DNA of 32,000 bases from Geotalea uraniireducens Rf4 (GCF_000016745.1 NC_009483.1:1500001-1532000); one strand, 5' to 3'. Positions 1,264 through 27,441 are shown, counted from the first letter of the stretch. Numbers and translations: made by a program. The notes: a model not told the origin generated them from the letters alone.

Positions 1264-3681
1264 GTGGATACAAACGATCTAAAGTTACCAGTGGAAAAAC
1301 TCAGATGGGAATGCGATCAGAATCAGTTCGATTTCAACACCACCGAGGATATCCCCGAGCTGGAAGGGTCCATCGGACAGGTGCGGGCGCTCAAATCGAT
1401 AGATTTCGGCCTGGGGATGCAGGAAGACGGCTTCAACCTCTTCCTGTCGGGTGAACCCGGCACGGGGCGCAGTTCCACCATCAAGAATCTGCTGAAAAAA
1501 CGGGCCAGAAATGAGCCTCCGCCCCAGGATTGGTGCTATGTTTACGACTTCAAGGCCCCGGACAATCCGCTCTCGCTTTCCCTGCCTGCCGGCAAGGGGG
1601 GGGAACTGGCCGACGACATGAACGATTTCCTCGAAGGTGTCAAGATCAATATCCCCAAGGCGCTGGAGAGCAAGGAGTACGAAACCAACAAGGTCGCCAT
1701 CATCGAGGATTACCAGGAGAAAAACGGCGAGCTTTTCGCAAGGCTCGAACAGGAGGCGGGGGAAAGGGCTTTTTCCTTGCAGCGGACCGTTTCCGGTCTG
1801 GTGATGGTGCCGCAGAAGGAGGGGCGCAACTACACCCAGGAAGAGTACGATGCCCTCACTAAAAATGAGCGGGACAAGCTGGACGAGGTGGGGAAGGAGC
1901 TGACGGAAAAACTCAACGATGTGCTCAGGCAGGTGCGGGATAATGAGAAGGCAACCAAGGATGCCTTGGCCCAGCTCGACCGTGAGTTGGGTCTGTCCGC
2001 GGTGGGGCACAACATGGAACCGCTCAAGGAAAAATACGCGGAATTCGCCAAGGTGAAAGGATATCTGGAGTCGGTGCAGGAGGACATTATCCTCAATCTG
2101 GAAGATTTCAAGCCGCAAGCCGCTGCTCCCCAGATCGCCGGGATCAGGTTTCCGCGCCAGGAACCGTCGTTCGAACGTTATGCCGTCAACGTCTTTGTCG
2201 ACAACAAGGGGCTAGAAGGGGCGCCGATAATATTCGAGGCCAATCCCACCTACAACAACCTTTTCGGCCGGATCGAGCACATCATGCAGATGGGGGGGGC
2301 CGCCACCACCGATTTTACCCTCATCAAGCCGGGGGCGCTGCACCGGGCCAACGGCGGGTATCTCATCGTCGACGCCCGTGAAGTGCTGATCAATCCCTTT
2401 GCCTGGGACGCCCTGAAACGCTGTATAAGAAACGGCGAGATACGGATCGAGGACGTGCTGGAACAGTACCGCTTCATGACGGTGGTCTCCCTCAAGCCGG
2501 AGCCGGTACCGCTTCAGGCGAAGATCATCATGATCGGCTCCCCGTGGATCTACTACCTCCTTTATTACATGGAGCCGGACTACCGGAAGTTTTTCAAGGT
2601 GAAGGCGGACTTTGACAGCCGTGTGGCGAGAACGCCCGAGATCATGAAGGATTACGCCCTCTTTGTTTCCACCCACTGCAGGAACGAAAAGCTCCTCCCC
2701 TTTGACCGGAGCGGCGTGGCAGGCCTGCTTGAGTATTCGGCGCGCCTGGTTGAAGACCAGGAAAAGCTCTCTTCCCAGTTCATGGAGATATCCGATCTGA
2801 TTCGGGAAGCCGATTACTGGGCGCAAAAGGAGAACAGCCCGCTCGTTACCAAGGATTTCGTCAAACGCGCCGTCGAGGAGAAGGTTTACCGGAGCAACCG
2901 GATCGAGGAGCGGATGCAGGAGATGTTCGATGAAGGAACCATCCTCGTGGATACCGCCAACGTGGAGGTGGGACAGATCAACGGCCTGTCGGTCATCACC
3001 CTCGGCGATTACACCTTCGGCAGGCCTTCGCGGGTAACCGCCAGGGTTTACATGGGGCGTGGCGGCATGGTCAATATCGAGCGGGAGGTAAAGCTCTCCG
3101 GTCCGATCCACGACAAGGGTGTGCTGATCCTGACCGGTTACCTGGGGGGGAAATACGCCCATGACAAGCCGCTTTCCTTCTCCGCTTCGATCTGTTTCGA
3201 GCAGTCCTACGAAGGGGTCGAGGGGGACAGCGCCTCTTCAACCGAGCTCTATGCCCTCTTGTCCGCCCTTTCCGGTGTGCCGCTCAGACAGGGAATAGCC
3301 GTTACCGGCAGCGTTAACCAGTTGGGCAAGGTGCAGCCCATCGGCGGGGTGAATTACAAGATCGAGGGGTTCTATGCGGTCTGCAAGGCAAAGGGGCTGA
3401 CCGGCGAGCAGGGGGTTATCATCCCGAAAACCAACGAACGGCACCTGATGCTCAAGGACGAGGTGGTCGCAGCGGTGAGAGACGGAAAGTTCCACATCTG
3501 GAGCGTGGAAACCATCGAACAGGGGATCGAGGTCCTTACCGGCGTCCCGGCCGGGATACAGCTACCCGACGGCGCCTATCCTGCGGGGACCATTAATTAT
3601 CTCGTGGACAAGCGCCTGCGGGAGATACTGGAAAGCAGGAAGAAGTTCTCGGCAACGGCGGAAAAGGAGGAAACGAAGTAG
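1264..3681 (+). CDS. Lon-like protease with an AAA-like domain, a coiled-coil insertion and a C-terminal S16 Ser-Lys protease domain (LonC/LonB-related)
   Basis: GTG start sits 5 nt after AAAGGAGG. P-loop-like GEPGTGRSS, GGYLIVDA, and a C-terminal EGDSASSTE...GGVNYKIEG matching the Lon protease serine and lysine regions. Confidence 0.8.
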   Translation: MDTNDLKLPVEKLRWECDQNQFDFNTTEDIPELEGSIGQVRALKSIDFGLGMQEDGFNLFLSGEPGTGRSSTIKNLLKKRARNEPPPQDWCYVYDFKAPDNPLSLSLPAGKGGELADDMNDFLEGVKINIPKALESKEYETNKVAIIEDYQEKNGELFARLEQEAGERAFSLQRTVSGLVMVPQKEGRNYTQEEYDALTKNERDKLDEVGKELTEKLNDVLRQVRDNEKATKDALAQLDRELGLSAVGHNMEPLKEKYAEFAKVKGYLESVQEDIILNLEDFKPQAAAPQIAGIRFPRQEPSFERYAVNVFVDNKGLEGAPIIFEANPTYNNLFGRIEHIMQMGGAATTDFTLIKPGALHRANGGYLIVDAREVLINPFAWDALKRCIRNGEIRIEDVLEQYRFMTVVSLKPEPVPLQAKIIMIGSPWIYYLLYYMEPDYRKFFKVKADFDSRVARTPEIMKDYALFVSTHCRNEKLLPFDRSGVAGLLEYSARLVEDQEKLSSQFMEISDLIREADYWAQKENSPLVTKDFVKRAVEEKVYRSNRIEERMQEMFDEGTILVDTANVEVGQINGLSVITLGDYTFGRPSRVTARVYMGRGGMVNIEREVKLSGPIHDKGVLILTGYLGGKYAHDKPLSFSASICFEQSYEGVEGDSASSTELYALLSALSGVPLRQGIAVTGSVNQLGKVQPIGGVNYKIEGFYAVCKAKGLTGEQGVIIPKTNERHLMLKDEVVAAVRDGKFHIWSVETIEQGIEVLTGVPAGIQLPDGAYPAGTINYLVDKRLREILESRKKFSATAEKEETK

Positions 3682-4009: not shown

Positions 4010-4642
4010 TTAAAACTGGCTCGCAACGCCGCGGGCTTTTTCAACTGCGGCGCCCTTAAATGACTCCGCACGATCCGGTATGGCATCAACCCCCTCAACC
4101 ACAATCGACTCGAAATCCTCGATTCCCATAAACCCCATGATCGACTTGAGGTACGGCACGGAATGGTCCTCTTCCTTGCCAAAGTGGAAACCGCCGGAAG
4201 AGTGAATATGGAGACACTTCCTCCCCTGGTCTTTAAGAAGCCCCACAGGGCCGGTGGGGGTGTACGCGAAGGTCTTGCCAACCACGCAGACCGCGTCGAT
4301 GTACATTTTCAATTCTGCCGGAAACCCCAGGTTAAACATCGGGGTCACGAACACGTATTTGTCGGCGGCTATGAATTGATCGGCGTGCTTCCAGATGTGG
4401 CCGACCTTGCGTTGCTCGTCGGTCGTGAGTGACGCGAAGCTTTCGCCATTGCGCATCTTTCCCCAGCCGCTCAGCACATCGGCATCGATCCGTTGGATGT
4501 TGTCGCGGTAAAGATCGAGAAAATACACCTCGTCGGCAGGGTTCTGTCTGAGGTATTCATCCAGGAATTTCTTCCCGACCGAAAGGCTGCAAGAAAATTC
4601 GGTGGGTTTAAGGTTGCAGGTAACATAAAGTAGCTTTGCCAT
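4010..4642 (-). CDS. azoR: FMN-dependent NADH-azoreductase / quinone reductase
   Basis: 210 aa. [13 protein letters not shown]..., [19 protein letters not shown] and HSSGG are typical of the AzoR/AcpD flavodoxin-like fold. Confidence 0.8.
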
Positions 4643-4701: not shown

Positions 4702-4905
4702 TTACGCTGCATTCTTCTCTTTGTTGATATGAACCATCACTCCGATGAATCCTCCCATGAAGCCACTAATCAAACCGCTCATTCCGTTACCAAGAGCATT
4801 TATGGTGATATTCTGCGGTAACGCGAATATGAAGTAATTGAGTAGAAAGCTCATCAGGAAACCCATAAATCCACCCATCATTCCATTTATAAGTGCGCTT
4901 TTCAT
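4702..4905 (-). CDS. Small two-helix membrane protein with duplicated glycine-zipper motif
   Basis: 67 aa. [13 protein letters not shown] and [15 protein letters not shown] form two hydrophobic segments. It lies in line with the flanking minus-strand genes. AT-richer than its neighbours. Confidence 0.5.
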
Positions 4906-4959: not shown

Positions 4960-5937
4960 TTAAAATACCTTGGAAAGCCGAAAAACCACTTTGGTTCCTT
5001 CCGGACGATTTTCCGCTCCAGTCTCAAAGTAGCTGTTGAGATAGAGCGATAACCCGTTGCCGCTCCACTTGATGCCCGGTCCGATGCCAAAAACTCGTTC
5101 ATCCGAATTGGCCTGGCTGCGGCCATCCACCTTGTCCTCGGTGAGTTGCTGAAGTGCATATCCGTTAATCCCGAGTCGCACCCCTTTGACGACCTCGTAC
5201 GAAGCGGCATAGTTGGCGTGAAAAGCCTGGCCCGGCTGAATCGTTCCTGCCCCCAATCCCACAAATGGTTCATCGTTCTCCGAGTTCCAGAGGTAGTGGA
5301 GCCGCGCACTCATCTCCAGCCTGTCAGTCGGCATGATCGTGAATGCGTAGTAGGGATTGATGCTGACCGTGTTGCTACCGATATTCACCGGTCGGTTGCG
5401 GTCGTATGCTCCTGTTGGCAGCGTGATGTCGAACACAAAGCGGTGAAAGTACGGCATGCCGAAGAGCTTGTGGTCGGTCCACTGAAGAATAAAGGGACTA
5501 ATTATCAGGTCCCCGACGCCTTGTTCACTGCCTTTGGGGCCAAAACTGGTATCCACATCTACATCCACAAGAGGCAGAAGAATTTCGGCACCGTAGAAGC
5601 CGCCGAGGAGGCGGAAATTGGATATATAGGCAACATGCGTGGTGGCACTCACGGCGGTGAGTTTGTTGGAACCAGAAATCTGCTCCCCCTGGCTGTTGTT
5701 AAACTGTCCGGCATGGTAATAATCGAAGGTTTCTTCCACTAGCCACCCTGGGAAGGCAATGCCGTCCTGAAAGGAGGTCTCCCCGAGATTTACCGGCGGG
5801 AGTGGGATATCGGCGGCCGACGAAACCCCGGCGCAAACAAGCAGCCCAATCACGACTAGAATGGCAAGAGTCTTCCTGCCGAACAAACCTTGCTTGTCTT
5901 TCCTGTACAACATTTTCCCTGTCTTACCGTATTTCAT
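4960..5937 (-). CDS. Outer-membrane beta-barrel channel, MetA-pathway-of-phenol-degradation-like family
   Basis: Signal peptide ...LLVCAGVSSAADIP, alternating beta-strand pattern and a C-terminal ...FRLSKVF ending in Phe. GAAAGG RBS upstream of the start. Confidence 0.6.
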   Translation of the reverse strand: MKYGKTGKMLYRKDKQGLFGRKTLAILVVIGLLVCAGVSSAADIPLPPVNLGETSFQDGIAFPGWLVEETFDYYHAGQFNNSQGEQISGSNKLTAVSATTHVAYISNFRLLGGFYGAEILLPLVDVDVDTSFGPKGSEQGVGDLIISPFILQWTDHKLFGMPYFHRFVFDITLPTGAYDRNRPVNIGSNTVSINPYYAFTIMPTDRLEMSARLHYLWNSENDEPFVGLGAGTIQPGQAFHANYAASYEVVKGVRLGINGYALQQLTEDKVDGRSQANSDERVFGIGPGIKWSGNGLSLYLNSYFETGAENRPEGTKVVFRLSKVF

Positions 5938-6009
5938 AAGTACCTTTCTTGTTTTGGGAGCCGCCCTTGATTATGAGCGCGACCCTGTGTAATTCATCAC
6001 TGTTCAAAT

Positions 6010-6921
6010 CTATATCGCGCACATGCCCGTTGCAGGGTCGCAGACCATGGAACTGGTTTTAGGTGAAATAAAGTACCCGTTTCCCGCTTCGTGTCGTGTA
6101 ATCAGTTGCTTAGTCAAAAGTGAGTCAACCGCTGACTTCATTTCTTCATCCGTCAGATCGAATGCCATTTGAACTTCAATCGGTGCCACGGAAACATAGG
6201 TTCTTATAAACGCCATGATCGCCTCTTCACTGGCCGGAACCAGGCGTTCGTGGATTGCTCCGTTTGTCAAATATTCCATCACTGCCTTGAACTCTTCATA
6301 TCTCTTGTATCCACGAAGGATGGTCTCCTTCTCACCAAATCGTACGAGGAAAGTGGGATAACCATGGGCTTGATATCGTGCCGTTAGCGCAAGATCCTGC
6401 TCGAATGCCTTTTGGGCGGCGCCACGGGAAAAATCTTCCAGGAAACGGGCAACATCCAGGCCGACTTCTGCTGCCAATTCCACGAGCACTTCGGTAGTAT
6501 TCGTCAACTTCGCCTCGGCAGCTGACGCTTCACGAATACGTCTGAGATACCTGTTTGCCAGCACTTGATCCTGTATCTGTGCGGCTTTATAGGCAATGTT
6601 TTGCGGGTACGTGGACGGGTATTCTTGGGAAAACAGCTTGAATCCTTCGCTTTGTACCGGCATTCCATGGCGTTCGGAGGCTTCCAGCCAATGCTTGGCA
6701 ATGTTTGCATTGGAGCGGGCCGGGTCTCCTCCGATGTCATTGTATCCGTCGTAAAATGACGTGATATCCTTTACCAATCCTGCCATGACAAAACTGATTT
6801 TTACTTGTTCACCAAATCTGGTTTCCAGCTTACGCAGAACTGGTTCGCTGCCCCAGCACCAGGTGCAAACCGGGTCAGTAAATTCGATGATTTCGACAAC
6901 GTTGTTCATGGTTGTAGTCAT
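6010..6921 (-). CDS. DsbA-family thioredoxin-fold protein with a C-terminal extension
   Basis: FTDPVCTWCWGSEP contains a CxxC motif in a DsbA-like N-terminal context. 303 aa. Confidence 0.7.
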   Translation of the reverse strand: MTTTMNNVVEIIEFTDPVCTWCWGSEPVLRKLETRFGEQVKISFVMAGLVKDITSFYDGYNDIGGDPARSNANIAKHWLEASERHGMPVQSEGFKLFSQEYPSTYPQNIAYKAAQIQDQVLANRYLRRIREASAAEAKLTNTTEVLVELAAEVGLDVARFLEDFSRGAAQKAFEQDLALTARYQAHGYPTFLVRFGEKETILRGYKRYEEFKAVMEYLTNGAIHERLVPASEEAIMAFIRTYVSVAPIEVQMAFDLTDEEMKSAVDSLLTKQLITRHEAGNGYFISPKTSSMVCDPATGMCAI

Positions 6922-7022: not shown

Positions 7023-7628
7023 TTAGCTGGACGCTTTGCCAAGGTGACTCAATACTTCCTCGAACAATATCTGGATCAGTTTGGAGCCCACTTCGTTTGT
7101 CCACGATCCCGCCAACTCGGCGATAAGTTGATTGGTCGACGTGAGGGTCACGCCCGCCCGTTCCATGCGCCGCAAGGCGGTTTCATCGGATATCTGGGTC
7201 GGTGAACCGCCGGCATCGACTACCACCTGCACGTTAAACCCTTCCTCCACCGCGCTCATCGCCGGATAAACGACACATACGTCGTTGGTGAGACCCGCCA
7301 TAATCAGGTTCTTCCGTCCGGTAGCCATAACGGCCGCCCTGTAGTTGGGATCGTCAAAGGCGTTCACTACGCCGGCGCGTTTCACCCGGCGTGCGTGCTC
7401 TTCCGGTGCGATCTCCTCCAGGTCTTTGATCAGAGGCCCCTGTGCCTGCTCTTCCATGCTGCTGGTGAGAATCAGGGGCATACCAAGCGCCTTCGCTGTG
7501 CGAGCCAGCGCACGGGTATTGTTCCTGATCAATTCCTGCGGGATGTTTTGGCACCAACCCAAGGTTCCAACCTGGTGATCAATGAGCAGCATGGCAGCGT
7601 TTGTTGCCGTGAATTTCTCGGTTTTCAT
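7023..7628 (-). CDS. Isochorismatase-family (cysteine hydrolase, YcaC-like) protein
   Basis: AAMLLIDHQVG..., LILTSS... and LIMAGLTNDVCVVYPA are typical of the isochorismatase fold. AAAGGAGAC RBS upstream. Confidence 0.8.
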   Translation of the reverse strand: MKTEKFTATNAAMLLIDHQVGTLGWCQNIPQELIRNNTRALARTAKALGMPLILTSSMEEQAQGPLIKDLEEIAPEEHARRVKRAGVVNAFDDPNYRAAVMATGRKNLIMAGLTNDVCVVYPAMSAVEEGFNVQVVVDAGGSPTQISDETALRRMERAGVTLTSTNQLIAELAGSWTNEVGSKLIQILFEEVLSHLGKASS

Positions 7629-7671: not shown

Positions 7672-7688
7672 AGCGACAACCGTGCCAA
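7672..7688 (-). promoter_or_regulatory. Sigma-54 (-24/-12) promoter upstream of the isochorismatase-family gene
   Basis: The minus strand reads TTGGCACGGTTGTCGCT against the consensus TGGCAC-N5-TTGCW. GG-N10-GC spacing is exact, with one mismatch in the -12 box. The element lies ~45 nt upstream of the ATG at 7628. Confidence 0.65.
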
Positions 7689-7723
7689 GTAAAAACATCA
7701 ATTAAATCAAGGTGTAATGTTTT

Positions 7724-7910
7724 ACAGATCAACCAAATTACTAAATACGGTAATCATTAATTGTTGAATTTGGTAAAACCTAGTAATTTGTTAAATATGA
7801 CAATAGATCTGCTGCAATCATTCGACTACCAGCGGGAGCATTTTCCCCTGGGGGGGGCTATGTTTTGCCGCAGATCAAAGCGGAAAAATCAGAACATTAT
7901 GGTGATTGAC
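7724..7910 (+). pseudogene. Decayed duplicate of the upstream region and first ~50 codons of the sigma-54 activator gene found at 11661-11950
   Basis: 7724-7815 aligns colinearly with 11661-11751. GCGGGAGCATTTTCCCCTGG (7832-7851) matches GCGGGAGCATTTCCCTATGG (11879-11898). Similarity is weaker out to ~7910. The start-codon region (~125 nt) is missing from this copy. Confidence 0.6.
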
Positions 7911-8026
7911 TTTAATGTGAGAATAGCGTACTAACTCTGCATAATCTTGGAGGATTTTGAATATTTGTTTTGATAATTTAATGAGGGCGACATGGTAGCC
8001 TGTTTATTGGCATTTGATAGATGAAG

Positions 8027-8075
8027 AAAAGCCGCTTTGATCAGTATTTTTGCTGATTGAGCGGCTTTTATTTTA
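8027..8075 (+). terminator. Orphan intrinsic terminator hairpin (T-runs on both strands)
   Basis: AAAAGCCGCTTTGATCAG...CTGATTGAGCGGCTTTT is followed by ATTTT. No intact gene ends here. Confidence 0.55.
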
Positions 8076-8109
8076 GGTTTAGCGAACACAAACAAGAGGT
8101 TCAATTGCT

Positions 8110-8946
8110 ATGAAAAACAAGCTGGCGATTTTCGAAGATTATAAAATTCGCAGAGCATATGACGATGAAACTGAAACTTGGTATTTCTCGGTGGTTGATA
8201 TCATCCAGGCATTGCTGCAACAACCGGATTATCAAACAGCTCGGAAGTATTGGAATAAGCTGAAAGAGCGCATGAGCAAGGAAGGGAGTGAGTCGGTGAC
8301 AAATTGTCACCGACTGAAACTGGAAGCGGCTGACGGGAAGAAGTACCTGACTGATGTCGCCAGCCCGGAAACCCTGCTGCGCCTGATTCAATCGGTTCCC
8401 AGTCCCAAGGCCGAACCGATCAAGCTCTGGCTGGCCAAAGTCGGCTATGAGCGGATGCAGGATATGGCCGATCCGGCGCGGTCACTGGACCGGGCAAGGG
8501 AGTACTGGCAACAGCACGGCAGGAGCGAAAAGTGGATCCAGCAGCGGATGATGGGACAGGAGACCCGCAACAAGCTGACCGATTACTGGAAAGATCACGA
8601 CATCAAAAAAGAGACCGAGTTTGCCATCCTGACCAACATCATTCATCAGGAGTGGGCCGGAGTTGCCGTCAAGGAGCACAAGAAGCTGAAAGGGCTGAAA
8701 ACCCAGAACCTGCGTGACCATATGAGCGAAGCGGAACTGATCTTTACCGCCCTGGCCGAACTCTCCACCCGCCAGATTGCCGAGACGATGGCAGCAACCG
8801 GCATGCCTGAAAACAAGGTGGCAGGGAAGAAGGGGGGCGGCATTGCCCGGAAGGCGCGGATTGATCTTGAGGAGAAGACCGGCAGAAGCGTGGTGACCGG
8901 GGAGAATTTTCTGCCGCCGGGGCGAAAGAAGATTTCGGATAAATGA
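8110..8946 (+). CDS. Bro-N domain protein, DinD (DNA-damage-inducible protein D)-like
   Basis: The N-terminal FEDYKIRRAYDDETETWYFSVVDIIQAL is Bro-N like. The C-terminal half (LKGLKTQNLRDHMSEAELIFTALAE...) resembles DinD architecture. The upstream region is AT-rich. Confidence 0.65.
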   Translation: MKNKLAIFEDYKIRRAYDDETETWYFSVVDIIQALLQQPDYQTARKYWNKLKERMSKEGSESVTNCHRLKLEAADGKKYLTDVASPETLLRLIQSVPSPKAEPIKLWLAKVGYERMQDMADPARSLDRAREYWQQHGRSEKWIQQRMMGQETRNKLTDYWKDHDIKKETEFAILTNIIHQEWAGVAVKEHKKLKGLKTQNLRDHMSEAELIFTALAELSTRQIAETMAATGMPENKVAGKKGGGIARKARIDLEEKTGRSVVTGENFLPPGRKKISDK

Positions 8947-9049
8947 AGTGAGCGGGATTGTCAAATGTGTAGCTCCGGTACGGTTGAGCTGTTGACTTTT
9001 TTGTGTGCTTTTTAATACTGTTGCGGCGGGTGCTAACGTGATCTTTTCT

Positions 9050-9202
9050 TTCTTCGACAAATCCATCAACGAATGTAACGTGGCCGGCACCACCGGCAGC
9101 GGCTTCGGTCTCAGCGGGGAAGGGTATTTCCGGTTGTCGGCCTTCGGCCATCGTGAGAATTTGATTGAGGCGGTGGAGAGGATACCAAGGAGTCATGTAT
9201 GA
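9050..9202 (+). pseudogene. 3'-terminal fragment (~50 codons) of a class I aminotransferase gene, LL-diaminopimelate aminotransferase-like; its end is replaced at the cassette junction
   Basis: Reads [45 protein letters not shown], then a non-native tail PRSHV*. No upstream aminotransferase body exists; there is a stop at 8993-8995 in frame. Confidence 0.7.
9113..9184 (+). repeat. 72-bp direct repeat, left copy
   Basis: Matches 9981-10052 at 71 of 72 positions. The single mismatch is at 9161 vs 10029. Confidence 0.95.
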
Positions 9203-9534
9203 TCAAGAACCTGAACGATAGAGAAGAGTTGGCCCTGCGGGATTTTCTGACCAAGGTTGCTCAGCGCTTCGGGGGCAACTACCTCTACAGCCTCATGTTC
9301 GGCTCCAAGGCTCGCGGCGATGCCCACGAAGGTTCCGACCTCGATGTGGCTGTGGTCATGCAAGATGCCGATTTCGAGACCAAGCGCGCCATCTACGCCA
9401 TTGCCTACGACGAACTGCTGGAAAACGAGGTGGATATCTCGCCGGTCATCTTCTCGCGGGATGTGTTCGAGCGCCAGAAAGCCGCTCACTTTCCGTTGCT
9501 TCGTGAGATCGAACGGGACATGGTGCCGTTGTAA
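9199..9534 (+). CDS. Minimal nucleotidyltransferase (MNT-type antitoxin of MNT/HEPN modules)
   Basis: [19 protein letters not shown] matches the GSxxRG...SDxD NTase motif. AAGGAG sits 6 nt upstream of the ATG. 111 aa. Confidence 0.8.
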
Positions 9535-9542
9535 ACGATCCC

Positions 9543-9944
9543 CTGCTCACCGATGATCCAATTGTCTTCCTGATCCAACGGGGCAACGACTCTCTCAAGA
9601 GCGCCGAGGCGCTGGTCGAACTGGACCTCATCCTCGACGGCCTCTCCCGCGCCTACTACGCCGCGCTGCACCATGCACGGGCGCTGCTGCTCTCCATGGA
9701 CATCATCCCCAAAAGTCACAAAGGCACGCTTACACTCTTTTCCTTGCATTTCATCAAGACCGGCATCATCCCCAAGGAGATCGGGGTTATCTTCTCGATC
9801 CTGCAGAAGATCAGGGAGGATTCGGATTATGAGATCGGGACGTTTTACGAGCGGGATGAAGCGGAGAGGCTTCTGGAGGATACCAGGCTGTTTTGCAGGA
9901 CGGTGGTGGCTGTGCTGAAGGCGAGTGGTAAAGGTATGTTATGA
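9543..9944 (+). CDS. HEPN-domain protein (toxin partner of the MNT); start codon unresolved
   Basis: Frame 3 is open from 9507. HEPN-like sequence SLKSAEALVELDLILDGLSRAYYAALHHARALLLS precedes the first ATG at 9696. KIREDSDY lies in the C-terminal half. There is no in-frame ATG, GTG or TTG between 9507 and 9695. Confidence 0.6.
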   Translation: MLTDDPIVFLIQRGNDSLKSAEALVELDLILDGLSRAYYAALHHARALLLSMDIIPKSHKGTLTLFSLHFIKTGIIPKEIGVIFSILQKIREDSDYEIGTFYERDEAERLLEDTRLFCRTVVAVLKASGKGML

Positions 9945-9980
9945 GCTTGGGAAATATGGGAAGTGTCCCGCTTTTTCCCG

Positions 9981-10052
9981 AGCGGGGAAGGGTATTTCCG
10001 GTTGTCGGCCTTCGGCCATCGTGAGAATGTGATTGAGGCGGTGGAGAGGATA
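9981..10052 (+). repeat. 72-bp direct repeat, right copy
   Basis: See 9113-9184. The two copies start 868 bp apart and bracket the MNT/HEPN pair. Confidence 0.95.
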
Positions 10053-10070
10053 AAGATGAATTTGAAGTAA
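9981..10070 (+). pseudogene. Second copy of the aminotransferase 3' end, here with an apparently native C-terminus and terminator
   Basis: Reads [28 protein letters not shown], followed by a hairpin and a T-run. Confidence 0.7.
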
Positions 10071-10083
10071 GATGAAATTGAAC

Positions 10084-10110
10084 GACGGCCAATAAGGCCG
10101 CCTTTTGTAA
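10084..10110 (+). terminator. Putative intrinsic terminator after the aminotransferase remnant
   Basis: CGGCC-AATAA-GGCCG stem-loop followed by CCTTTTGTAATAATTTTT. The stem is only ~5-6 bp. Confidence 0.4.
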
Positions 10111-10134
10111 TAATTTTTACGTTGAGAGGTGAAA

Positions 10135-10467
10135 ATGAGAGCGACTGTAGAAGGAAGAGGGATTGCGCATCTTATTCATTTTACAAGGTTCGAAAACCTC
10201 AACAGCATCCTTCAGCATGGCATTAGGCCAAGACAAGTTCTTGATGCTGGTGGAGAAGAATACATATTTAACGATGAGCTGAGGCTTGACGGATGCCTGG
10301 ATGCAGTTTCACTCTCTATTAGTTTCCCAAATTATAAAATGTTTTACCCTTATAGATGTCAAGATTATTCAATAAATTGGGCTGTGTTGAGGCTAAAGTC
10401 TTCGATTTTGTGGGACCGAATTCCGGGGACGGACCGAATTCCCGAATTCCGGGGACACCATACTTAA
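10135..10467 (+). pseudogene. N-terminal fragment of a DUF4433/DarT-like ADP-ribosyltransferase toxin gene
   Basis: GIAHLIHFTRFENLNSILQHGI matches the DUF4433 N-terminal motif. Recognisable sequence ends near residue 95 and runs into a tandem repeat. About half the usual length, with no C-terminal catalytic region. AT-rich. Confidence 0.5.
10413..10456. repeat. Tandem duplication at the DarT-like truncation point
   Basis: GGACCGAATTCCGGGGAC is followed by GGACCGAATTC and then CCGAATTCCGGGGAC. Confidence 0.8.
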
Positions 10468-10470
10468 TTC

Positions 10471-10491
10471 AAAAAGCGGCCAATCGGCCGC
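10471..10491 (-). terminator. Intrinsic terminator of the Fic gene
   Basis: The minus strand reads GCGGCC-GATT-GGCCGC followed by TTTTT, 16 nt after the Fic stop codon. Confidence 0.6.
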
Positions 10492-10506
10492 CTCTGCTGT
10501 TTCAAT

Positions 10507-11556
10507 CTATCTCCCCACCGAATACCACGTCCCCTTACCTGTCCCATGCTGCTCCAGATACCCCTGCTGAACCAGTTGGCGCAGATGCAGCTTGACGGTG
10601 TTGCGATTGGCGGCCAGAAGAGTTACTGCATCGGCAATAGTGATCCTGCCACGCTCCCTGGCGATTGCCAGCATCTTTTCCTCCAGCGGCGCCAGTTTCT
10701 CCAGTAACTGTTCGCGCTCAATCTTGCCGAGCAGGACGTCTTTCTGCTTTTTCAGGCTGGTCAGGAAGAAACGCAGCCAGTTATCGAGATTTTCCTCTTC
10801 GCTCCGGATCAGCTTCTGTGATGCCCGCAGCGCCCGGTAATAACCATCCTTGTTTTCCTCCACGATCCTCTCCAGTGAACTGTACGGCACATGACGGTAG
10901 CCGCTCTGCAGGAGCAGCAGGGTGGTCAGGACACGGGAAAGACGGCCGTTGCCGTCCTGGAACGGGTGGATGGCCAGAAAATGGACGACAAACGCGCCGA
11001 TCACCAGAAGCGGATGCAGTTCTCCTTCCCGCAGGGCGGCCACCGTTCCGCTGACCAGTTCCGCCATCAGTCGCGGGGTGTCGAAAGGGGACGCTGTCTC
11101 GAAAATAACGCCGATGCTCCTGCCATCGGCATCAAAGGCCTCCACGTTGTTAGGCAGTGTCTTGTACTCCCCCCGGTGGGCAGCATCCTTTGTGCTGTAC
11201 TTCAGGGTAATGCCGTGGAGCTGCTTGATATGATTCTCGGTAAAGGGGATATACTCCCATGAATCATGGAGCGTATTCATCGCTTCGGCATAACCGGCAA
11301 CCTCCTCTTCATCACGGGAGCGGAACGGGCGCATTTCCAGATTCGCCAACAGCGCTTCAACCTGAAGGTCGGACAGCCTGGCTCCCTCGATCCTGGTGGA
11401 TGATCCCACGGATTCAATGGTTGCCACTCGTTTGAGCGACGTGAGCTTGTCCGGCGCCAGACGGCCGAGCATGTCCCAGCGCCCCTTGAATTCGTCAAGT
11501 TCGGCGATAAGGTTCAGTATCTGGCTAGTGATGCTGATTGATGAGGTTCTGATCAC
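10507..11556 (-). CDS. Fic-family protein (Fic_N + Fic core + C-terminal winged-helix)
   Basis: HPFQDGNGRLSR matches the Fic motif HxFx(D/E)GNGRxxR. The N-terminal SSTRIEG fits the (S/T)xxxE(G/N) inhibitory-helix motif. GTG start sits 9 nt after AGGAG. Confidence 0.85.
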   Translation of the reverse strand: MIRTSSISITSQILNLIAELDEFKGRWDMLGRLAPDKLTSLKRVATIESVGSSTRIEGARLSDLQVEALLANLEMRPFRSRDEEEVAGYAEAMNTLHDSWEYIPFTENHIKQLHGITLKYSTKDAAHRGEYKTLPNNVEAFDADGRSIGVIFETASPFDTPRLMAELVSGTVAALREGELHPLLVIGAFVVHFLAIHPFQDGNGRLSRVLTTLLLLQSGYRHVPYSSLERIVEENKDGYYRALRASQKLIRSEEENLDNWLRFFLTSLKKQKDVLLGKIEREQLLEKLAPLEEKMLAIARERGRITIADAVTLLAANRNTVKLHLRQLVQQGYLEQHGTGKGTWYSVGR

Positions 11557-11569
11557 AAGTTTAAGCTCC

Positions 11570-11641
11570 TACCCGAAACAGTACCCGAAAATACCCGTAA
11601 ATGCAATTGAAATTACCCATAAACATACCCATAAATACCCT
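11570..11641. repeat. Six helically phased TACCC(G/A/T) hexamers immediately upstream of the Fic start
   Basis: Hexamers start at 11570, 11582, 11592, 11614, 11626 and 11636. Spacings are 12, 10, 22, 12 and 10 nt, giving two triplets 44 nt apart. Confidence 0.8.
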
Positions 11642-11660
11642 TATGGTTTCTGATGCAATC

Positions 11661-11751
11661 ACAGATCAACATTATTGCTAAATACGGTAATCAAATATTG
11701 TCAAGTTTAGCAATGTTTTGTAAATTGTTAAATAGGACAACAGAGCAGCTG
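11661..11751 (+). promoter_or_regulatory. Conserved block upstream of the sigma-54 activator gene (duplicate of 7724-7815); candidate enhancer/operator region
   Basis: Shares CTAAATACGGTAATCA and TTGTTAAATAGGACAA (11725-11740; compare TTGTTAAATATGACAA at 7788-7803) with the left copy. Confidence 0.45.
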
Positions 11752-11780
11752 CCGTCAGGTACCTCATAGGGAGAAATAGC

Positions 11781-13310
11781 ATGGCCGTCAGCAGAGATGA
11801 ATTTTTCAGAGAAGTTACCCTCAGGATTTGCAGCAGCCTCCAGATCAACACCGCATTCGGACGAGTGTTCGAGTATCTGCGGGAGCATTTCCCTATGGAC
11901 CACATGTTCCTTGATATCACGGACAAAAGCCTCGGGGTGATTCGCCATATAGCCGTTGCCACTATCGGTACCAAGACCCCCGAGGAGATAATTACTATCC
12001 CTGAAGGGCTCTGGGAATGGGTAAGGAAACTGCAGGTCCCATTTATCCTGACCCCTTCAGATCAGGATGATCGTATTCGAGCATTTGCCCCCCTCATCAA
12101 GCTTGAAGGGCACTCGGATCTGTCGATGCCGCTCAGGATAGAAGAGGAGCTTATCGGATTCCTGGTCCTCCGTGCCAGAGGTGAAGGGAAATTTACTCCC
12201 GAACATGTGGAGTTGCTGGCGACTGTCGCCGAGCCGTTCGCAATAGCACTGGCCAATGTGTTGGCCCACGAGGAAGTAATAAAATACCGGGACATCCTTA
12301 TCGACGATAACCGTTTTCTGAACAGGGAGATTCTTTCCTCGGCGGGCGACGATATTGTCGGAGGGAATTCAGGGCTACGCAATGTGATGGAGATGGTCCG
12401 TCAGGTGGCACCACTAAGCAATACGGTGCTCTTGATGGGGGAAACTGGAACGGGGAAGGAAGTCATTGCCAACGCGATACATTTTGCGTCGCCCCGCAAG
12501 GATGGCCCATTTATCAAGGTCAACTGCGGTGCCATCCCGGAAAGCCTCATCGATAGCGAGTTGTTCGGCCACGAAAAGGGCGCGTTCACAGGTGCGGTTG
12601 CGGCAAAGCGGGGGCGCTTCGAGCGGGCCTCAGGCGGCACCATCTTTCTCGACGAGATCGGCGAACTTCCGCCCCAGGCCCAGGTGCGGCTTCTCCGGGT
12701 GCTTCAAAACCGCGAGATTGAGCGTGTTGGAGGAAGCAAGCCGATCTCCGTTGATATCCGGGTAATCGCCGCCACCCACCGCAACCTGGAACGCATGGTT
12801 TCGGAAAACCGTTTCCGTGAAGACCTCTGGTTCCGCCTGAATGTCTTCCCGATCATCGTCCCCCCTTTGAGGCAGCGGAAAGACGATGTCCCTGCCCTCA
12901 CACGCCATTTTGTGGAACTGAAAAGCCGGGAACTGGGGATAGCTACCCCCCCCGCCATTGCACCCGGTGCGCTGGAAAGACTTATGAACTACGGCTGGCC
13001 GGGAAATGTCCGGGAACTGGAAAACCTGGTGGAGAGGGAACTGATCCGACATCGGGGCGGACAACTGAGATTCGATTCTCTGTTGCCAAGCGAGAGAGGT
13101 GGCGAAACACAACCCGTCACGGAAGGGAAAAGTGGCGGCCCGTTAAACCTCGACGAAGCGATGTCCTTGCATATCGGTAAGGTTCTCAAGATGACCAAAG
13201 GGAAGATTCACGGTCCGGGTGGCGCGGCGGAATTGCTTGGCATCAATCCGAACACGCTGAGGGGGCGAATGAACAAGCTTGGCATAATTTACGGGCGAGT
13301 AAGAAGGTAA
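11781..13310 (+). CDS. Sigma-54-dependent transcriptional activator (GAF sensor + AAA+ + Fis-type HTH)
   Basis: Contains GETGTGKE (Walker A), GAFTGA (sigma-54 contact loop), IFLDEIGEL and a C-terminal AAELLGINPNTLRGRMNKLGI helix-turn-helix. GGGAGA RBS upstream. Confidence 0.9.
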   Translation: MAVSRDEFFREVTLRICSSLQINTAFGRVFEYLREHFPMDHMFLDITDKSLGVIRHIAVATIGTKTPEEIITIPEGLWEWVRKLQVPFILTPSDQDDRIRAFAPLIKLEGHSDLSMPLRIEEELIGFLVLRARGEGKFTPEHVELLATVAEPFAIALANVLAHEEVIKYRDILIDDNRFLNREILSSAGDDIVGGNSGLRNVMEMVRQVAPLSNTVLLMGETGTGKEVIANAIHFASPRKDGPFIKVNCGAIPESLIDSELFGHEKGAFTGAVAAKRGRFERASGGTIFLDEIGELPPQAQVRLLRVLQNREIERVGGSKPISVDIRVIAATHRNLERMVSENRFREDLWFRLNVFPIIVPPLRQRKDDVPALTRHFVELKSRELGIATPPAIAPGALERLMNYGWPGNVRELENLVERELIRHRGGQLRFDSLLPSERGGETQPVTEGKSGGPLNLDEAMSLHIGKVLKMTKGKIHGPGGAAELLGINPNTLRGRMNKLGIIYGRVRR

Positions 13311-13485
13311 ATGCCGCTTTTCATCAAGTCCTAACAGGATCACATGATTGAAGATCCTGTTACGCTATCTCGACATGCGGAAGGCATCGTCACGCCGATT
13401 TATGTAAATTCTTACCAAGTGTTGTAACTTCAGCTAGCGGAAGATTGGACCTAATCAGGAATGCTTTTTCCGGGATAAGACGATA

Positions 13486-25568: not shown

Positions 25569-26136
25569 GTACGCCAGGCCAAGCCTGGCTGATCTATCTG
25601 ACTGAAAAGTGTCAGACATGTAAATTGCTCGTTCACCATGTAGTCGCGGTCTGTCACGAGAGGGTAACCAAACGTGGGGAGTAAGACCGGTTCTTTGTAA
25701 GAAAAGAGCGAAGGGTACGATAACTACCCTGACGACGAAGACGCGAGCCCAGCGCAAGCGAACCCGTTTCGGCCTCGTTACACGTAGTTGACAGTGGCCA
25801 ACCTTCCGAATGTGGTGAAGCCTGCCATCCACCGGTGATAAACGAGCGAAAGAACCGGTGGGACTGTCCGGGGTGATTGGGGAGGGCGCGTGTCGAAAGA
25901 TCAGCCGAGGAACCTGGGAGGTCCGACGTAATTCCCAAAGCGAAAGGGTTTCGCCGAAGGGAGAACGCCGACGGGGAATCAATAACCCGCCAAGCGTGTA
26001 CGGTCGGAATTCGGAGCGGCCCATAGTAGCCGGGAAGCGGGGTAATGCCCGTGGAGCCAAGGGGCCGTACTTCAGTCATGTTTACACGGAAAGAGAGGAG
26101 ACCCGCTTGAGCGACAGACGCTCCATAACGGAATGG

Positions 26137-27441
26137 ATGGCCGAAGGATTCGAACCTGAACCCGGACTGCCGGTAAAAGTCTCCCTTCTGCGGTGGAAAC
26201 TGAGCAGCAAGGCCAAACGAGAACCGCAGTTCCGGTTCTATGCCCTTTACGACCGAATCCATCGTCGTGATGTACTTGAAACGGCGTGGTTGCGAGTAAA
26301 GGCGAACAAGGGCGCGCCGGGAGTCGATGGTGTCAGCATTGAATCCATCGAGGTGCGGGCAGACGGAATATCCGGCTATCTTGACGAAATTCAAGAAAGC
26401 CTGAGAACCAAAAACTACAAACCATCCCCGGTGCGTCGCGTCTACATCACCAAGCCCAACGGCAAACTGCGCCCGCTCGGCATACCGTGCGTGCGGGACA
26501 GAATTGTACAGGCAGCCGTACTCCTTATCCTCGAACCGATATTTGAGGTGGACTTTCTCGACTGCTCCCATGGATTTCGTCCCAAAAGGCGTCCCCATGG
26601 AGCCCTCGACCAAGTCGGTAATAACCTCCAACTCGGACGGCAGGAAGTGTATGACGCGGATCTTTCGAGCTACTTTGACAGCATCCCCCACGAGCACCTG
26701 ATAGTAGAACTTGAGCGGCGCATAGCCGACCGGAGTGTCCTCAAACTGATCCGGCAATGGCTTCACAGTCCGGTCAGAGAAGAAGACGGCAGCATCAGCC
26801 GTCCCAAACAAGGGACGCCACAAGGCGGGGTAATATCTCCCCTTCTTGCCAACATCTACCTTCACCGGCTCGACCGGGCCTTTCACGAAGAAGCAGACAG
26901 CCCCTACCACTTCGCCAGAGCGCGCATGGTACGGTTTGCCGACGACTTCGTAGTAATGGCCAGACACATGGGCAATCGCATAACCGGATGGCTGGAAGAG
27001 AAACTCGAAACAGACCTTGGACTCAGCATCAACCGTGACAAAACCGGTATTGTCAGAATGAACAAGAAAGAGAGCCTGAACTTTCTGGGATTCACCCTCC
27101 GCTATGACCGTGACCTGCGGGGCAGAGATTGGGATTATCTCAACATCATGCCGAGTAAGAAGGCCATAGGAGCACTCAAGGGAAAAATCCGGGAGAAGAC
27201 CCGAAGCGGATACAAAAAGCCGCTTGTCGAAGCAATTGCCGAGGTAAACAGCATCCTTCGCGGATGGGGCAACTACTTCGACTACGGGTATCCCCGGAAA
27301 GTATTTCGAGACGTGAATCATTACACGAGGACTCGCTTTCGAATATTTCTGAACAATCGGAGCCAAAGGCGGAGCAAACCCTTCAGGGCAGGTGAAAGCC
27401 TGTATGCCGGACTTAAGCGATATGGTCTGGTTTACCTGTAA
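26137..27441 (+). CDS. Group II intron reverse transcriptase/maturase (no endonuclease domain evident)
   Basis: Contains [69 protein letters not shown] and the X-domain RGWGNYF. The ATG at 26137 is preferred over the 25858 start in the ORF track, which would read through ribozyme domains I-III. Confidence 0.85.

Follow-up and report, generated by a model that had tools for sequence, protein, structure and literature searches.

Why does 3.8 kb of accessory DNA separate a putative sigma-54-dependent operon of detox type from a sigma-54 activator gene, and why is this DNA bracketed by two diverged copies of what looks like one regulatory region? The question is raised by a stretch of 32,000 nucleotides (nt) of Geotalea uraniireducens Rf4 (GCF_000016745.1 NC_009483.1:1500001–1532000), which we call the window and whose numbering is used for all positions. 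An earlier note on this DNA had interpreted the arrangement as an attL/attR-type duplication of the 5' end of the present activator and of the region upstream of it. We infer instead that the two copies are paralogous intergenic regulatory regions and not an insertion-made duplication, and that the operon's former neighbour would have been a different family member from the activator now 3.8 kb away. The copies are regarded as paralogous because the left one adjoins a relic of another activator clade and carries the signature found in loci L119 and L088, and because the right module is closer to other genomes.

Relatives, cited here by locus (L) or protein (P) number, were gathered by a protein search (120 homologues), by contig look-ups and by a metagenome scan using the GAF domain alone, which gave 29 loci. 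The protein search returned activator homologues up to 95% identical, whose named sources are Geobacteraceae and related taxa. Open reading frames (ORFs) were annotated by profile scans with Pfam, NCBIfam and PADLOC. The features on which the argument turns are the following:

7672–7687, minus strand: predicted sigma-54 (−24/−12) promoter TGGCACGGTTGTCGCT of the form GG-N10-GC, with one mismatch to TGGCAC-N5-TTGCW
7724–7820, unstranded: left block, predicted enhancer region of the operon, with dyads at 7738–7753, 7761–7776 and 7788–7803
7821–7851, plus strand: relic of activator codons 30–39, FDYLREHFPL clade, identical at 29/31 positions to L099, at 28/31 to L097, L098 and L119 and at 25/31 to the resident gene
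7852–11660, unstranded: accessory islet of 3.8 kb with defence/toxin genes (Pfam, NCBIfam, PADLOC)
11661–11757, unstranded: right block, with dyads at 11675–11690, 11698–11713 and 11725–11740, lacking the sigma-54 promoter of intact relatives
11781–13310, plus strand: intact GAF/AAA+ (GAFTGA)/HTH sigma-54 activator, FEYLREHFPM clade (Pfam, alignment)

The repeat itself is beyond reasonable doubt. Local alignment, scored against shuffled sequences, pairs 7724–7820 with 11661–11757 without a gap and with 73 of 97 positions identical (75%), reaching a score of 74 compared to 18.3 ± 2.4 (maximum 29) in 300 shuffles, so that the three-quarters identity initially estimated by eye for this stretch upstream of the activator was borne out. 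A second, colinear block pairs 7821–7851 with 11868–11898 (25/31, 81%; score 38 compared to 20.8 ± 2.5, maximum 30, in shuffles), placing the two blocks about 20 and 7 standard deviations above the shuffled controls, respectively. The second block begins at 7821 and not, as had been proposed, at 7832, and it is in frame, the left copy reading FDYQREHFPL where the activator reads FEYLREHFPM. Missing from the left copy are 110 nt corresponding to 11758–11867, that is the ribosome-binding site (RBS), the ATG and codons 1–29; the earlier note was right about the loss of the start codon and too high in its size estimate of about 125 nt. Weak homology had further been claimed up to about 7910, but nothing significant follows 7851: alignment of the region 7852–8110 to five versions of the intergenic region gave scores no better than those of shuffles. 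A putative third copy, covering part of the block edge at 7855–7880 (TATGTTTTGCCGCAGATCAAAG), was rejected because its scores against five references were likewise those of shuffled sequence. Exact identity between the copies runs longest inside the dyads and not at the junctions, and a comparison of the junctions of the two repeats revealed no identical core.

The relic points to another clade than that of the resident activator. Four positions separate L099 from the resident gene, two of them changing the amino acid (E to D and M to L), and the relic has the L099 state at all four, its other two mismatches being private. The motif FDYLREHFPL is present in 21 of the 120 homologues, and the eight listed examples are 78–80% identical to the resident activator, whose closest homologues are marked by FEYLREHFPM-like motifs. 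The left block shares the signature ATCATTAATTGTTrAATTTGGT with L088 and L119, while right-type blocks carry ATCAAATATTGTCAAGTTTAGCAA. For inference, block comparisons across loci relied on MAFFT alignments; global block identities computed with free end gaps yielded partial alignments (e.g. 63/69) and were excluded from inference.

The right copy belongs to a module of its own, consisting of the block, the activator and the next 150 nt or so (11661–13459). The same module is found in L084, L089 and L090 with nt identities of 88, 86 and 91%, respectively, and with unrelated flanks in each. None of these three loci has an intact sigma-54 promoter beside the block. A sigma-70-like element (TTGTCA-17-TAAATT) lies within the right block at 11698–11726. 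The activator is a protein of 509 amino acids (aa) with a single, N-terminal GAF domain (GAF_2, 2.9e-12), an AAA+ domain (PF00158, 1.1e-71) with GETGTGKE, FLDEIGE and GAFTGA in the alignment, and a C-terminal HTH_8 match that is weak (E 0.001, below cut-off) but with the AAELLGINPNTLRGRMNKLGI motif conserved. It thus combines an AAA+ domain, an HTH and an N-terminal regulatory domain with a predicted −24/−12 target preceded by upstream sites, as expected of a sigma-54 activator, and its ratio of nonsynonymous to synonymous substitution rates (dN/dS) is 0.08–0.09. Compared to L084 and L089, nt 1–450 of the gene are 91–98% identical, nt 451–600 are 75% and most of the remainder is 81–90% identical. 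The first 300–450 nt are likewise 91–98% identical to the genes of L084, L089 and L088, which are otherwise 75–90% identical, with a sharp drop near nt 450 against L084 and L089. This pattern indicates either a recombination mosaic or a constraint at the nucleotide level; if the activator genes are mosaics, homologous exchange within the family is evidently common.

The function of the shared block is suggested by its dyads. Within the window, zero-mismatch matches to TTRY-TAAATANG-RYAA are confined to the two blocks, and allowing up to one mismatch gives four hits where 0.01 are expected; each block also holds a looser third dyad between the other two. Between the copies, dyads 1 and 3 are each identical at 15/16 positions and dyad 2 at 11/16, compared to 65% identity at the other 49 positions. 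A fifth dyad-like match with one mismatch (TTATGAAATACGGTAA, 5924–5939, minus strand) overlaps the start codon of the porin gene, is probably coding sequence and was set aside. The left dyads lie 51–116 nt upstream of the promoter and would be centred at about −85, −108 and −135 if +1 is placed about 12 nt after the −12 GC. More than 12 related Geobacteraceae loci share the promoter and the three dyads in the same order, which runs from the operon 5' untranslated region through the −24/−12 element, a conserved spacer of about 40 nt, the three dyads and CAGCTGCCGTCAG to the RBS and the activator ATG. In these loci, the sigma-54 promoter is located 165–206 nt before the activator ATG and the dyads are at about −107, −84 and −57. 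This conservation supports the proposal, already made in the earlier note, that the block behaves as the enhancer, or upstream activating sequence, of the sigma-54 promoter. In the left block of L088, dyad 1 is degraded to TTACCAAGTACAACAA.

The promoter TGGCACGGTTGTCGCT ends 43 nt before the iso ATG at 7628, iso being the isochorismatase-family gene that opens the operon, close to the 45 nt originally noted. Its −24 element is perfect, and the −12 GC is retained in both orphaned lineages (the window and L088). Since about one match of such stringency is expected per window by chance, its credibility derives from its position and from its conservation in relatives, an equivalent element being present at the same place in Citrifermentans bemidjiense Bem (C. 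bemidjiense; Bem in the following), L085, L088, L093, L094, L097, L101 and L119. The paper on the RpoN regulon of Geobacter sulfurreducens (PMC2725144) contains no mention of isochorismatase, azoreductase, DsbA or GAF. The spacer between the promoter and dyad 1 (7690–7723) contains ATCAAT(T/A)AAATCAGCATGTAATG, conserved in the window, L088, L097, L084, L113, L085 and L119, at a position where the site of a DNA-bending protein would be expected. An IHF-type consensus was looked for there by eye, and only the ATCAA core was seen; we make no claim for IHF.

Relatives show what the ancestral arrangement may have looked like. In Bem, an activator of 79% identity and a DsbA / Iso / ... / Flavodoxin_2 operon are divergent neighbours across a 275-bp spacer that contains TGGCACGCATATCGCT, and in L092–L099, L107, L108 and L110 combinations of the same four gene families lie directly upstream of the activator and divergent from it. 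Direct adjacency of activator and operon is found in Bem, L092–L099, L119 and L120. The claim that activator and operon were once divergent neighbours is therefore supported for an activator of this family, and not supported for the one now present. In L119 the order is Flavodoxin_2, small ORF, DsbA, Iso, sigma-54 promoter, three dyads and an intact FDY-clade activator (P0044), the porin being absent. The resident activator is 92% identical to P0044 in the HTH region (36/39) and 55% identical in the GAF domain (97/175). Positions 1053–15653 of L119 hold two family modules in tandem within 11 kb; the second, 9.6 kb further on, has a porin / molybdopterin-oxidoreductase (DmsABC-like, molybdenum-cofactor) operon divergent from activator P0056. 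Other pairs of homologues on one contig are P0029/P0077 and P0028/P0087. The target operon is a shuffled set, with the iso/dsbA order inverted and an efflux pump inserted in Bem, the porin variably present, and ADH / aldo-keto-reductase / lactamase_B carried instead by L085. Across L085, L086, L088, L092–L099 and L119, the activator and the intergenic architecture are constant despite this shuffling.

Locus L088 bears on the age of the event. Its activator is 92% identical to that of the window and of the FEY clade, has no block and follows a native leader of about 30 nt, and the layout runs from an orphaned operon and its left-type block through 63 nt of a window-type fic gene (87%) and another Fic cassette to the activator. 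Since L088 thus has the same orphaned operon, left-type block and fic fragment, the cognate activator was probably lost, and fic probably present, before the lineages of the window and L088 split, and an old event would explain the absence of recent-looking traces. An exactly matching empty site did not turn up: the activators of adjacent activator–operon pairs (Bem, L119, L094) are 77–80% identical, and the closest relatives (92–96%) are all rearranged. Look-ups of the exact activator and iso proteins returned the same organism only (SRR9436595/6), so that no empty-site strain was found among them, and a scan of the genome collection with the full activator gave, among the matches listed, relatives of at most 53% identity, generic AAA+ peptides and no shared synteny. 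The SRR9436595/6 contigs end about 200 nt past the Bro-N gene of the islet and just upstream of its DarT-fragment ORF; these same-organism contigs (L081, L082) do not cover the nucleotidyltransferase/HEPN stretch with its 72-nt repeats.

We consider it probable that the FDY-clade cognate activator was lost, leaving the 31-nt relic, that the defence islet and an FEY-clade paralogue now lie beside the operon, and that the surviving activator drives the promoter in trans. The most likely origin would be a deletion or replacement between neighbouring modules, with module import as the alternative. Running from codon 40 of a first activator to the left edge of a second block, between tandem modules as in L119, such a deletion would yield the anatomy of the window, namely a left relic, a promoter-less right block, modules in the same orientation and paralogue-level identity. 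The survivor, which plausibly acts on the orphaned promoter in trans, would bind the left dyads (about −85, −108 and −135) as three dimers, and these would assemble into a hexamer and open the sigma-54 promoter. As enhancer-binding proteins act in trans and it is the enhancer alone that has to lie close to the promoter, the 3.8 kb between gene and target would be no functional problem. The right block would then provide the survivor's sigma-70 promoter and an autoregulatory operator. Since what the two clades have in common is the DNA-binding domain and what separates them is the GAF sensor, a different signal may now control the operon. More tentatively, we propose a hand-over in which the paralogue, with its 92% identical HTH and 55% identical GAF domain, runs the orphaned promoter with a rewired signal, and in which the gap between enhancer and activator start is a recurrent landing site for defence/toxin cassettes (window, L088, L090).

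Several observations weigh against this account. No intermediate state (for example, the islet next to a left activator that is still intact) was found among the relatives, and an FDY-clade activator elsewhere in the genome could be the true regulator. The left block is about 80–81% identical to those of L088 and L119, modestly above its 75–79% identity to right-type blocks, and it is a shared signature, not a resolved tree, that carries the argument from it. The assignment of the relic to a clade depends on four diagnostic positions in 31 nt, next to two private changes, and the activator "clade" is not clean along the gene because the genes are recombination mosaics.

The account has to be weighed against four others. 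Integration of an accessory segment into the 5' end of the present activator, attL/attR- or Campbell-type, with duplication of the block and first codons and subsequent decay of the left copy, would explain why direct colinear repeats flank accessory DNA and why activator and operon are adjacent in relatives, and the high identity of the first 300–450 nt of the activator to L084 and L089 (91–98%), with its drop near nt 450, would fit a single crossover with a donor of block and 5' end. We nevertheless regard it as improbable. As the earlier note itself had remarked, the insert contains no integrase or recombinase: no such domain was found in the main ORFs called in 7852–11660 (Pfam, NCBIfam, PADLOC). 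In addition, the repeats are 75–81% identical and of different clades, the relic having the state of the other clade at 4/4 diagnostic sites; the block copies are 75% identical though each has an 80–91% relative in another genome (86–91% for the right module); the 3' end of the resident gene and the 150 nt downstream group with L084 and not with an L088-type context; and the junctions are without an identical core, the identities being those of internal dyads. A mobile or horizontally transferred unit of block and activator, with or without the defence genes, might instead have landed in and replaced the resident FDY-clade activator. The recurrence of the 1.8-kb unit (11661–13459) with both flanks different in L084, L089 and L090, the toxin/defence genes just upstream of it in the window, L088 and L090, and the REP-like GAATTCCGGGGAC at several junctions speak for such a unit, but no transposase, integrase or terminal repeats bound it, its left edge differs between loci, and with tandem paralogous modules in existence (L119) a simple deletion or replacement is sufficient, which leaves this explanation unlikely.

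The operon might also no longer be activated by anything nearby, left block and promoter being leftovers whose likeness to the right copy is functionless now. Although the cognate activator is destroyed and dyad 1 of the L088 left block is degraded, we see little chance of this, given that none of the five operon ORFs is disrupted and purifying selection acts on them (dN/dS 0.09–0.24, including the comparison with L088), that the −24 element is perfect and the −12 GC is kept in both orphaned lineages, that identity between the copies reaches 15/16 in dyads 1 and 3 compared to 65% outside the three dyads, and that the neighbouring paralogue has an HTH with 92% identity to that of the cognate type. 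That the block similarity is convergent or due to chance, reflecting two independent clusters of binding sites, is practically negligible as an explanation: identity does peak in the dyads, but the colinearity extends over 97 nt including spacers and 31 nt of coding sequence, far above the shuffled controls, and the whole architecture is homologous across the family.

The genes between the two copies agree with the claim that this segment is accessory:

8110–8946, plus strand: Bro-N protein (PF02498), PADLOC candidate defence family PDC-S13 (5.9e-119)
9199–9944, plus strand: MntA-like nucleotidyltransferase (9199–9534) and HEPN protein (9531–9944), PDC-S09 (2.1e-19)
10129–10467, plus strand: DarT-like fragment (PF14487 profile positions 2–100 of 201, below cut-off), truncated by two GAATTCCGGGGAC
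10507–11556, minus strand: Fic plus winged-HTH protein, SoFic-like (PF02661; PADLOC SoFic, 1.4e-42)

The cargo matches profiles of defence families (PDC-S13, PDC-S09, SoFic), its function being predicted, whereas the MntA and DarT profile matches are below cut-offs. A megablast search of the islet against plasmid and phage collections gave no match. A 72-nt repeat of 99% identity (9113–9184 and 9981–10052) brackets the MntA/HEPN pair, as do two fragments (9040–9198 and 9981–10070) encoding the C-terminus of an aminotransferase that looks DapL-like; the natural end (KMNLK*) and a terminator hairpin are preserved in the second fragment alone. It seems that the cassette was inserted into the 3' end of a gene at another location, duplicating this end, and that it reached its present place along with the fragments. 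The two GAATTCCGGGGAC elements that cut the DarT fragment are at 10418–10456. GC-rich palindromes of the types GAATTCCGGGGAC and GTCCCCGG, which resemble repetitive extragenic palindromic (REP) or miniature inverted-repeat transposable elements, also occur at rearrangement junctions in L084 (about 3150–3180), L113 (about 2370–2400), L088 (about 4140–4155) and L090 (392–441 and 1101–1139); in L084 and L113 they lie where the sigma-54 promoter formerly was, and in L088 the element adjoins the activator leader. Upstream of the Fic plus winged-HTH gene, a stretch of 104 nt contains six TACCCNWAW direct repeats (11570–11644) in two groups of three, with starts 10–12 nt apart within a group (seven in the whole window compared to 1.8 expected), which are a candidate operator for the Fic plus winged-HTH protein; part of the motif (ACATACCCGTAAATACC) adjoins the block in L090, a locus without fic. 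In the non-coding DNA between the relic and the Bro-N gene, a strong hairpin with T-runs on both sides was noted by eye (8031–8072, AAAAGCCGCT…AGCGGCTTTT), and it resembles a bidirectional terminator that has lost the genes it once served. Elsewhere in the window, Rfam reports a group II intron match (RF00029, 27491–27641, plus strand, 52 bits compared to a gathering score of 40); an ORF of 527 aa just before it (25858–27441, plus strand) may encode the intron's reverse transcriptase/maturase.

The operon on the other side of the left block comprises five genes:

7023–7628, minus strand: isochorismatase-family (YcaC-like) hydrolase, first operon gene (Pfam PF00857, 4e-21)
6010–6921, minus strand: DsbA-like thioredoxin-fold protein (Pfam PF13743 / PF01323; 88.5% nt identity to L119)
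4960–5937, minus strand: Phenol_MetA_deg outer-membrane channel, the MetA porin (Pfam PF13557, 6.9e-62; 86% nt identity to L097)
4702–4905, minus strand: small conserved ORF of 67 aa, with a gene called at the equivalent place in L082, L088 and L119
4010–4642, minus strand: Flavodoxin_2 / FMN-dependent NADH-azoreductase-like protein, last operon gene (Pfam PF02525, 6.7e-39)

The iso product is 89% identical (aa) to that of Bem and 91% to that of L088, and the flavodoxin gene is 88% identical (nt) to that of L119 and its product 81% identical (aa) to that of Bem, the NCBIfam azoreductase subfamily match being below cut-off. An NCBIfam scan of the small ORF gave no match, and no family was assigned.

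The locus does not overturn the current understanding of enhancer-binding proteins and represents ordinary genome remodelling that will not surprise specialists. Its value lies in a defined cis-architecture (a −24/−12 element, a conserved spacer and three TTGT-N8-ACAA-type dyads) for a multi-copy, uncharacterised family of GAF-type sigma-54 activators in Geobacteraceae, whose members would regulate varying combinations of hydrolase, thiol-oxidoreductase, porin and azoreductase genes. It also offers a testable case of a sigma-54 operon that outlived its own activator beside a paralogue with the same DNA-binding domain, and is therefore useful both for regulon annotation and for the study of regulator hand-over. 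Finally, it cautions against reading every diverged direct repeat around accessory DNA, from sequence alone, as the scar of an integration.

Among known systems, the attL/attR-bounded island resembles the window in that direct repeats of a gene end and its flank bracket accessory DNA, and differs from it in the integrase and the identical junction core that the window lacks and in the divergence of the window's repeats, which are 75% identical and belong to different clades. Defence islands share with it the clustering, without a mobility gene, of PDC-S13 (Bro-N), PDC-S09 / MntA-HEPN, a DarT fragment and a SoFic-like Fic protein, and comparable genes precede the activator in L088 (Fic_N-Fic) and in L090 (Phd/YafQ-like, with two Pfam matches that are both below curated cut-offs). 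Compared to such islands, however, the islet of the window is small (3.8 kb), partly decayed and located inside a regulator/target pair, not at a tRNA gene or known hotspot. Of the named activator families, here the GAF enhancer-binding proteins of the NifA / FhlA / HyfR type, NifA (380 bits) and FhlA (339 bits) score best, and some sources name homologues of the window activator "hydrogenase-4 transcriptional activator". Both scores are far below the equivalog cut-offs of 529 and 830, the window has no nif or hyc/hyf neighbours, its activator has a single GAF domain, and its dyad is TGT-N8-ACA where that of NifA is TGT-N10-ACA. There is also a likeness to NorR, which shares the order of GAF, AAA+ with GAFTGA and C-terminal HTH, a similar size, the divergence of activator and sigma-54 target seen in intact relatives, and three consecutive dyads in the shared intergenic region. 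At norVW of Escherichia coli, three NorR dimers on three enhancer sites are needed for the active hexamer (PMC2831303). The window activator differs in its NorR score (334.7 bits, below the NCBIfam NF003451 equivalog cut-off of 476), in its dyads, which are GT-N8-AC and not the NorR core GT-N7-AC (PMC2831303), and in its targets, which are hydrolase, thiol-disulfide, porin and azoreductase-type genes and not norVW or hmp. The locus is thus best described as an uncharacterised, NorR-like GAF enhancer-binding protein system, seen after the presumed loss of a paralogue and invasion by a putative defence islet.

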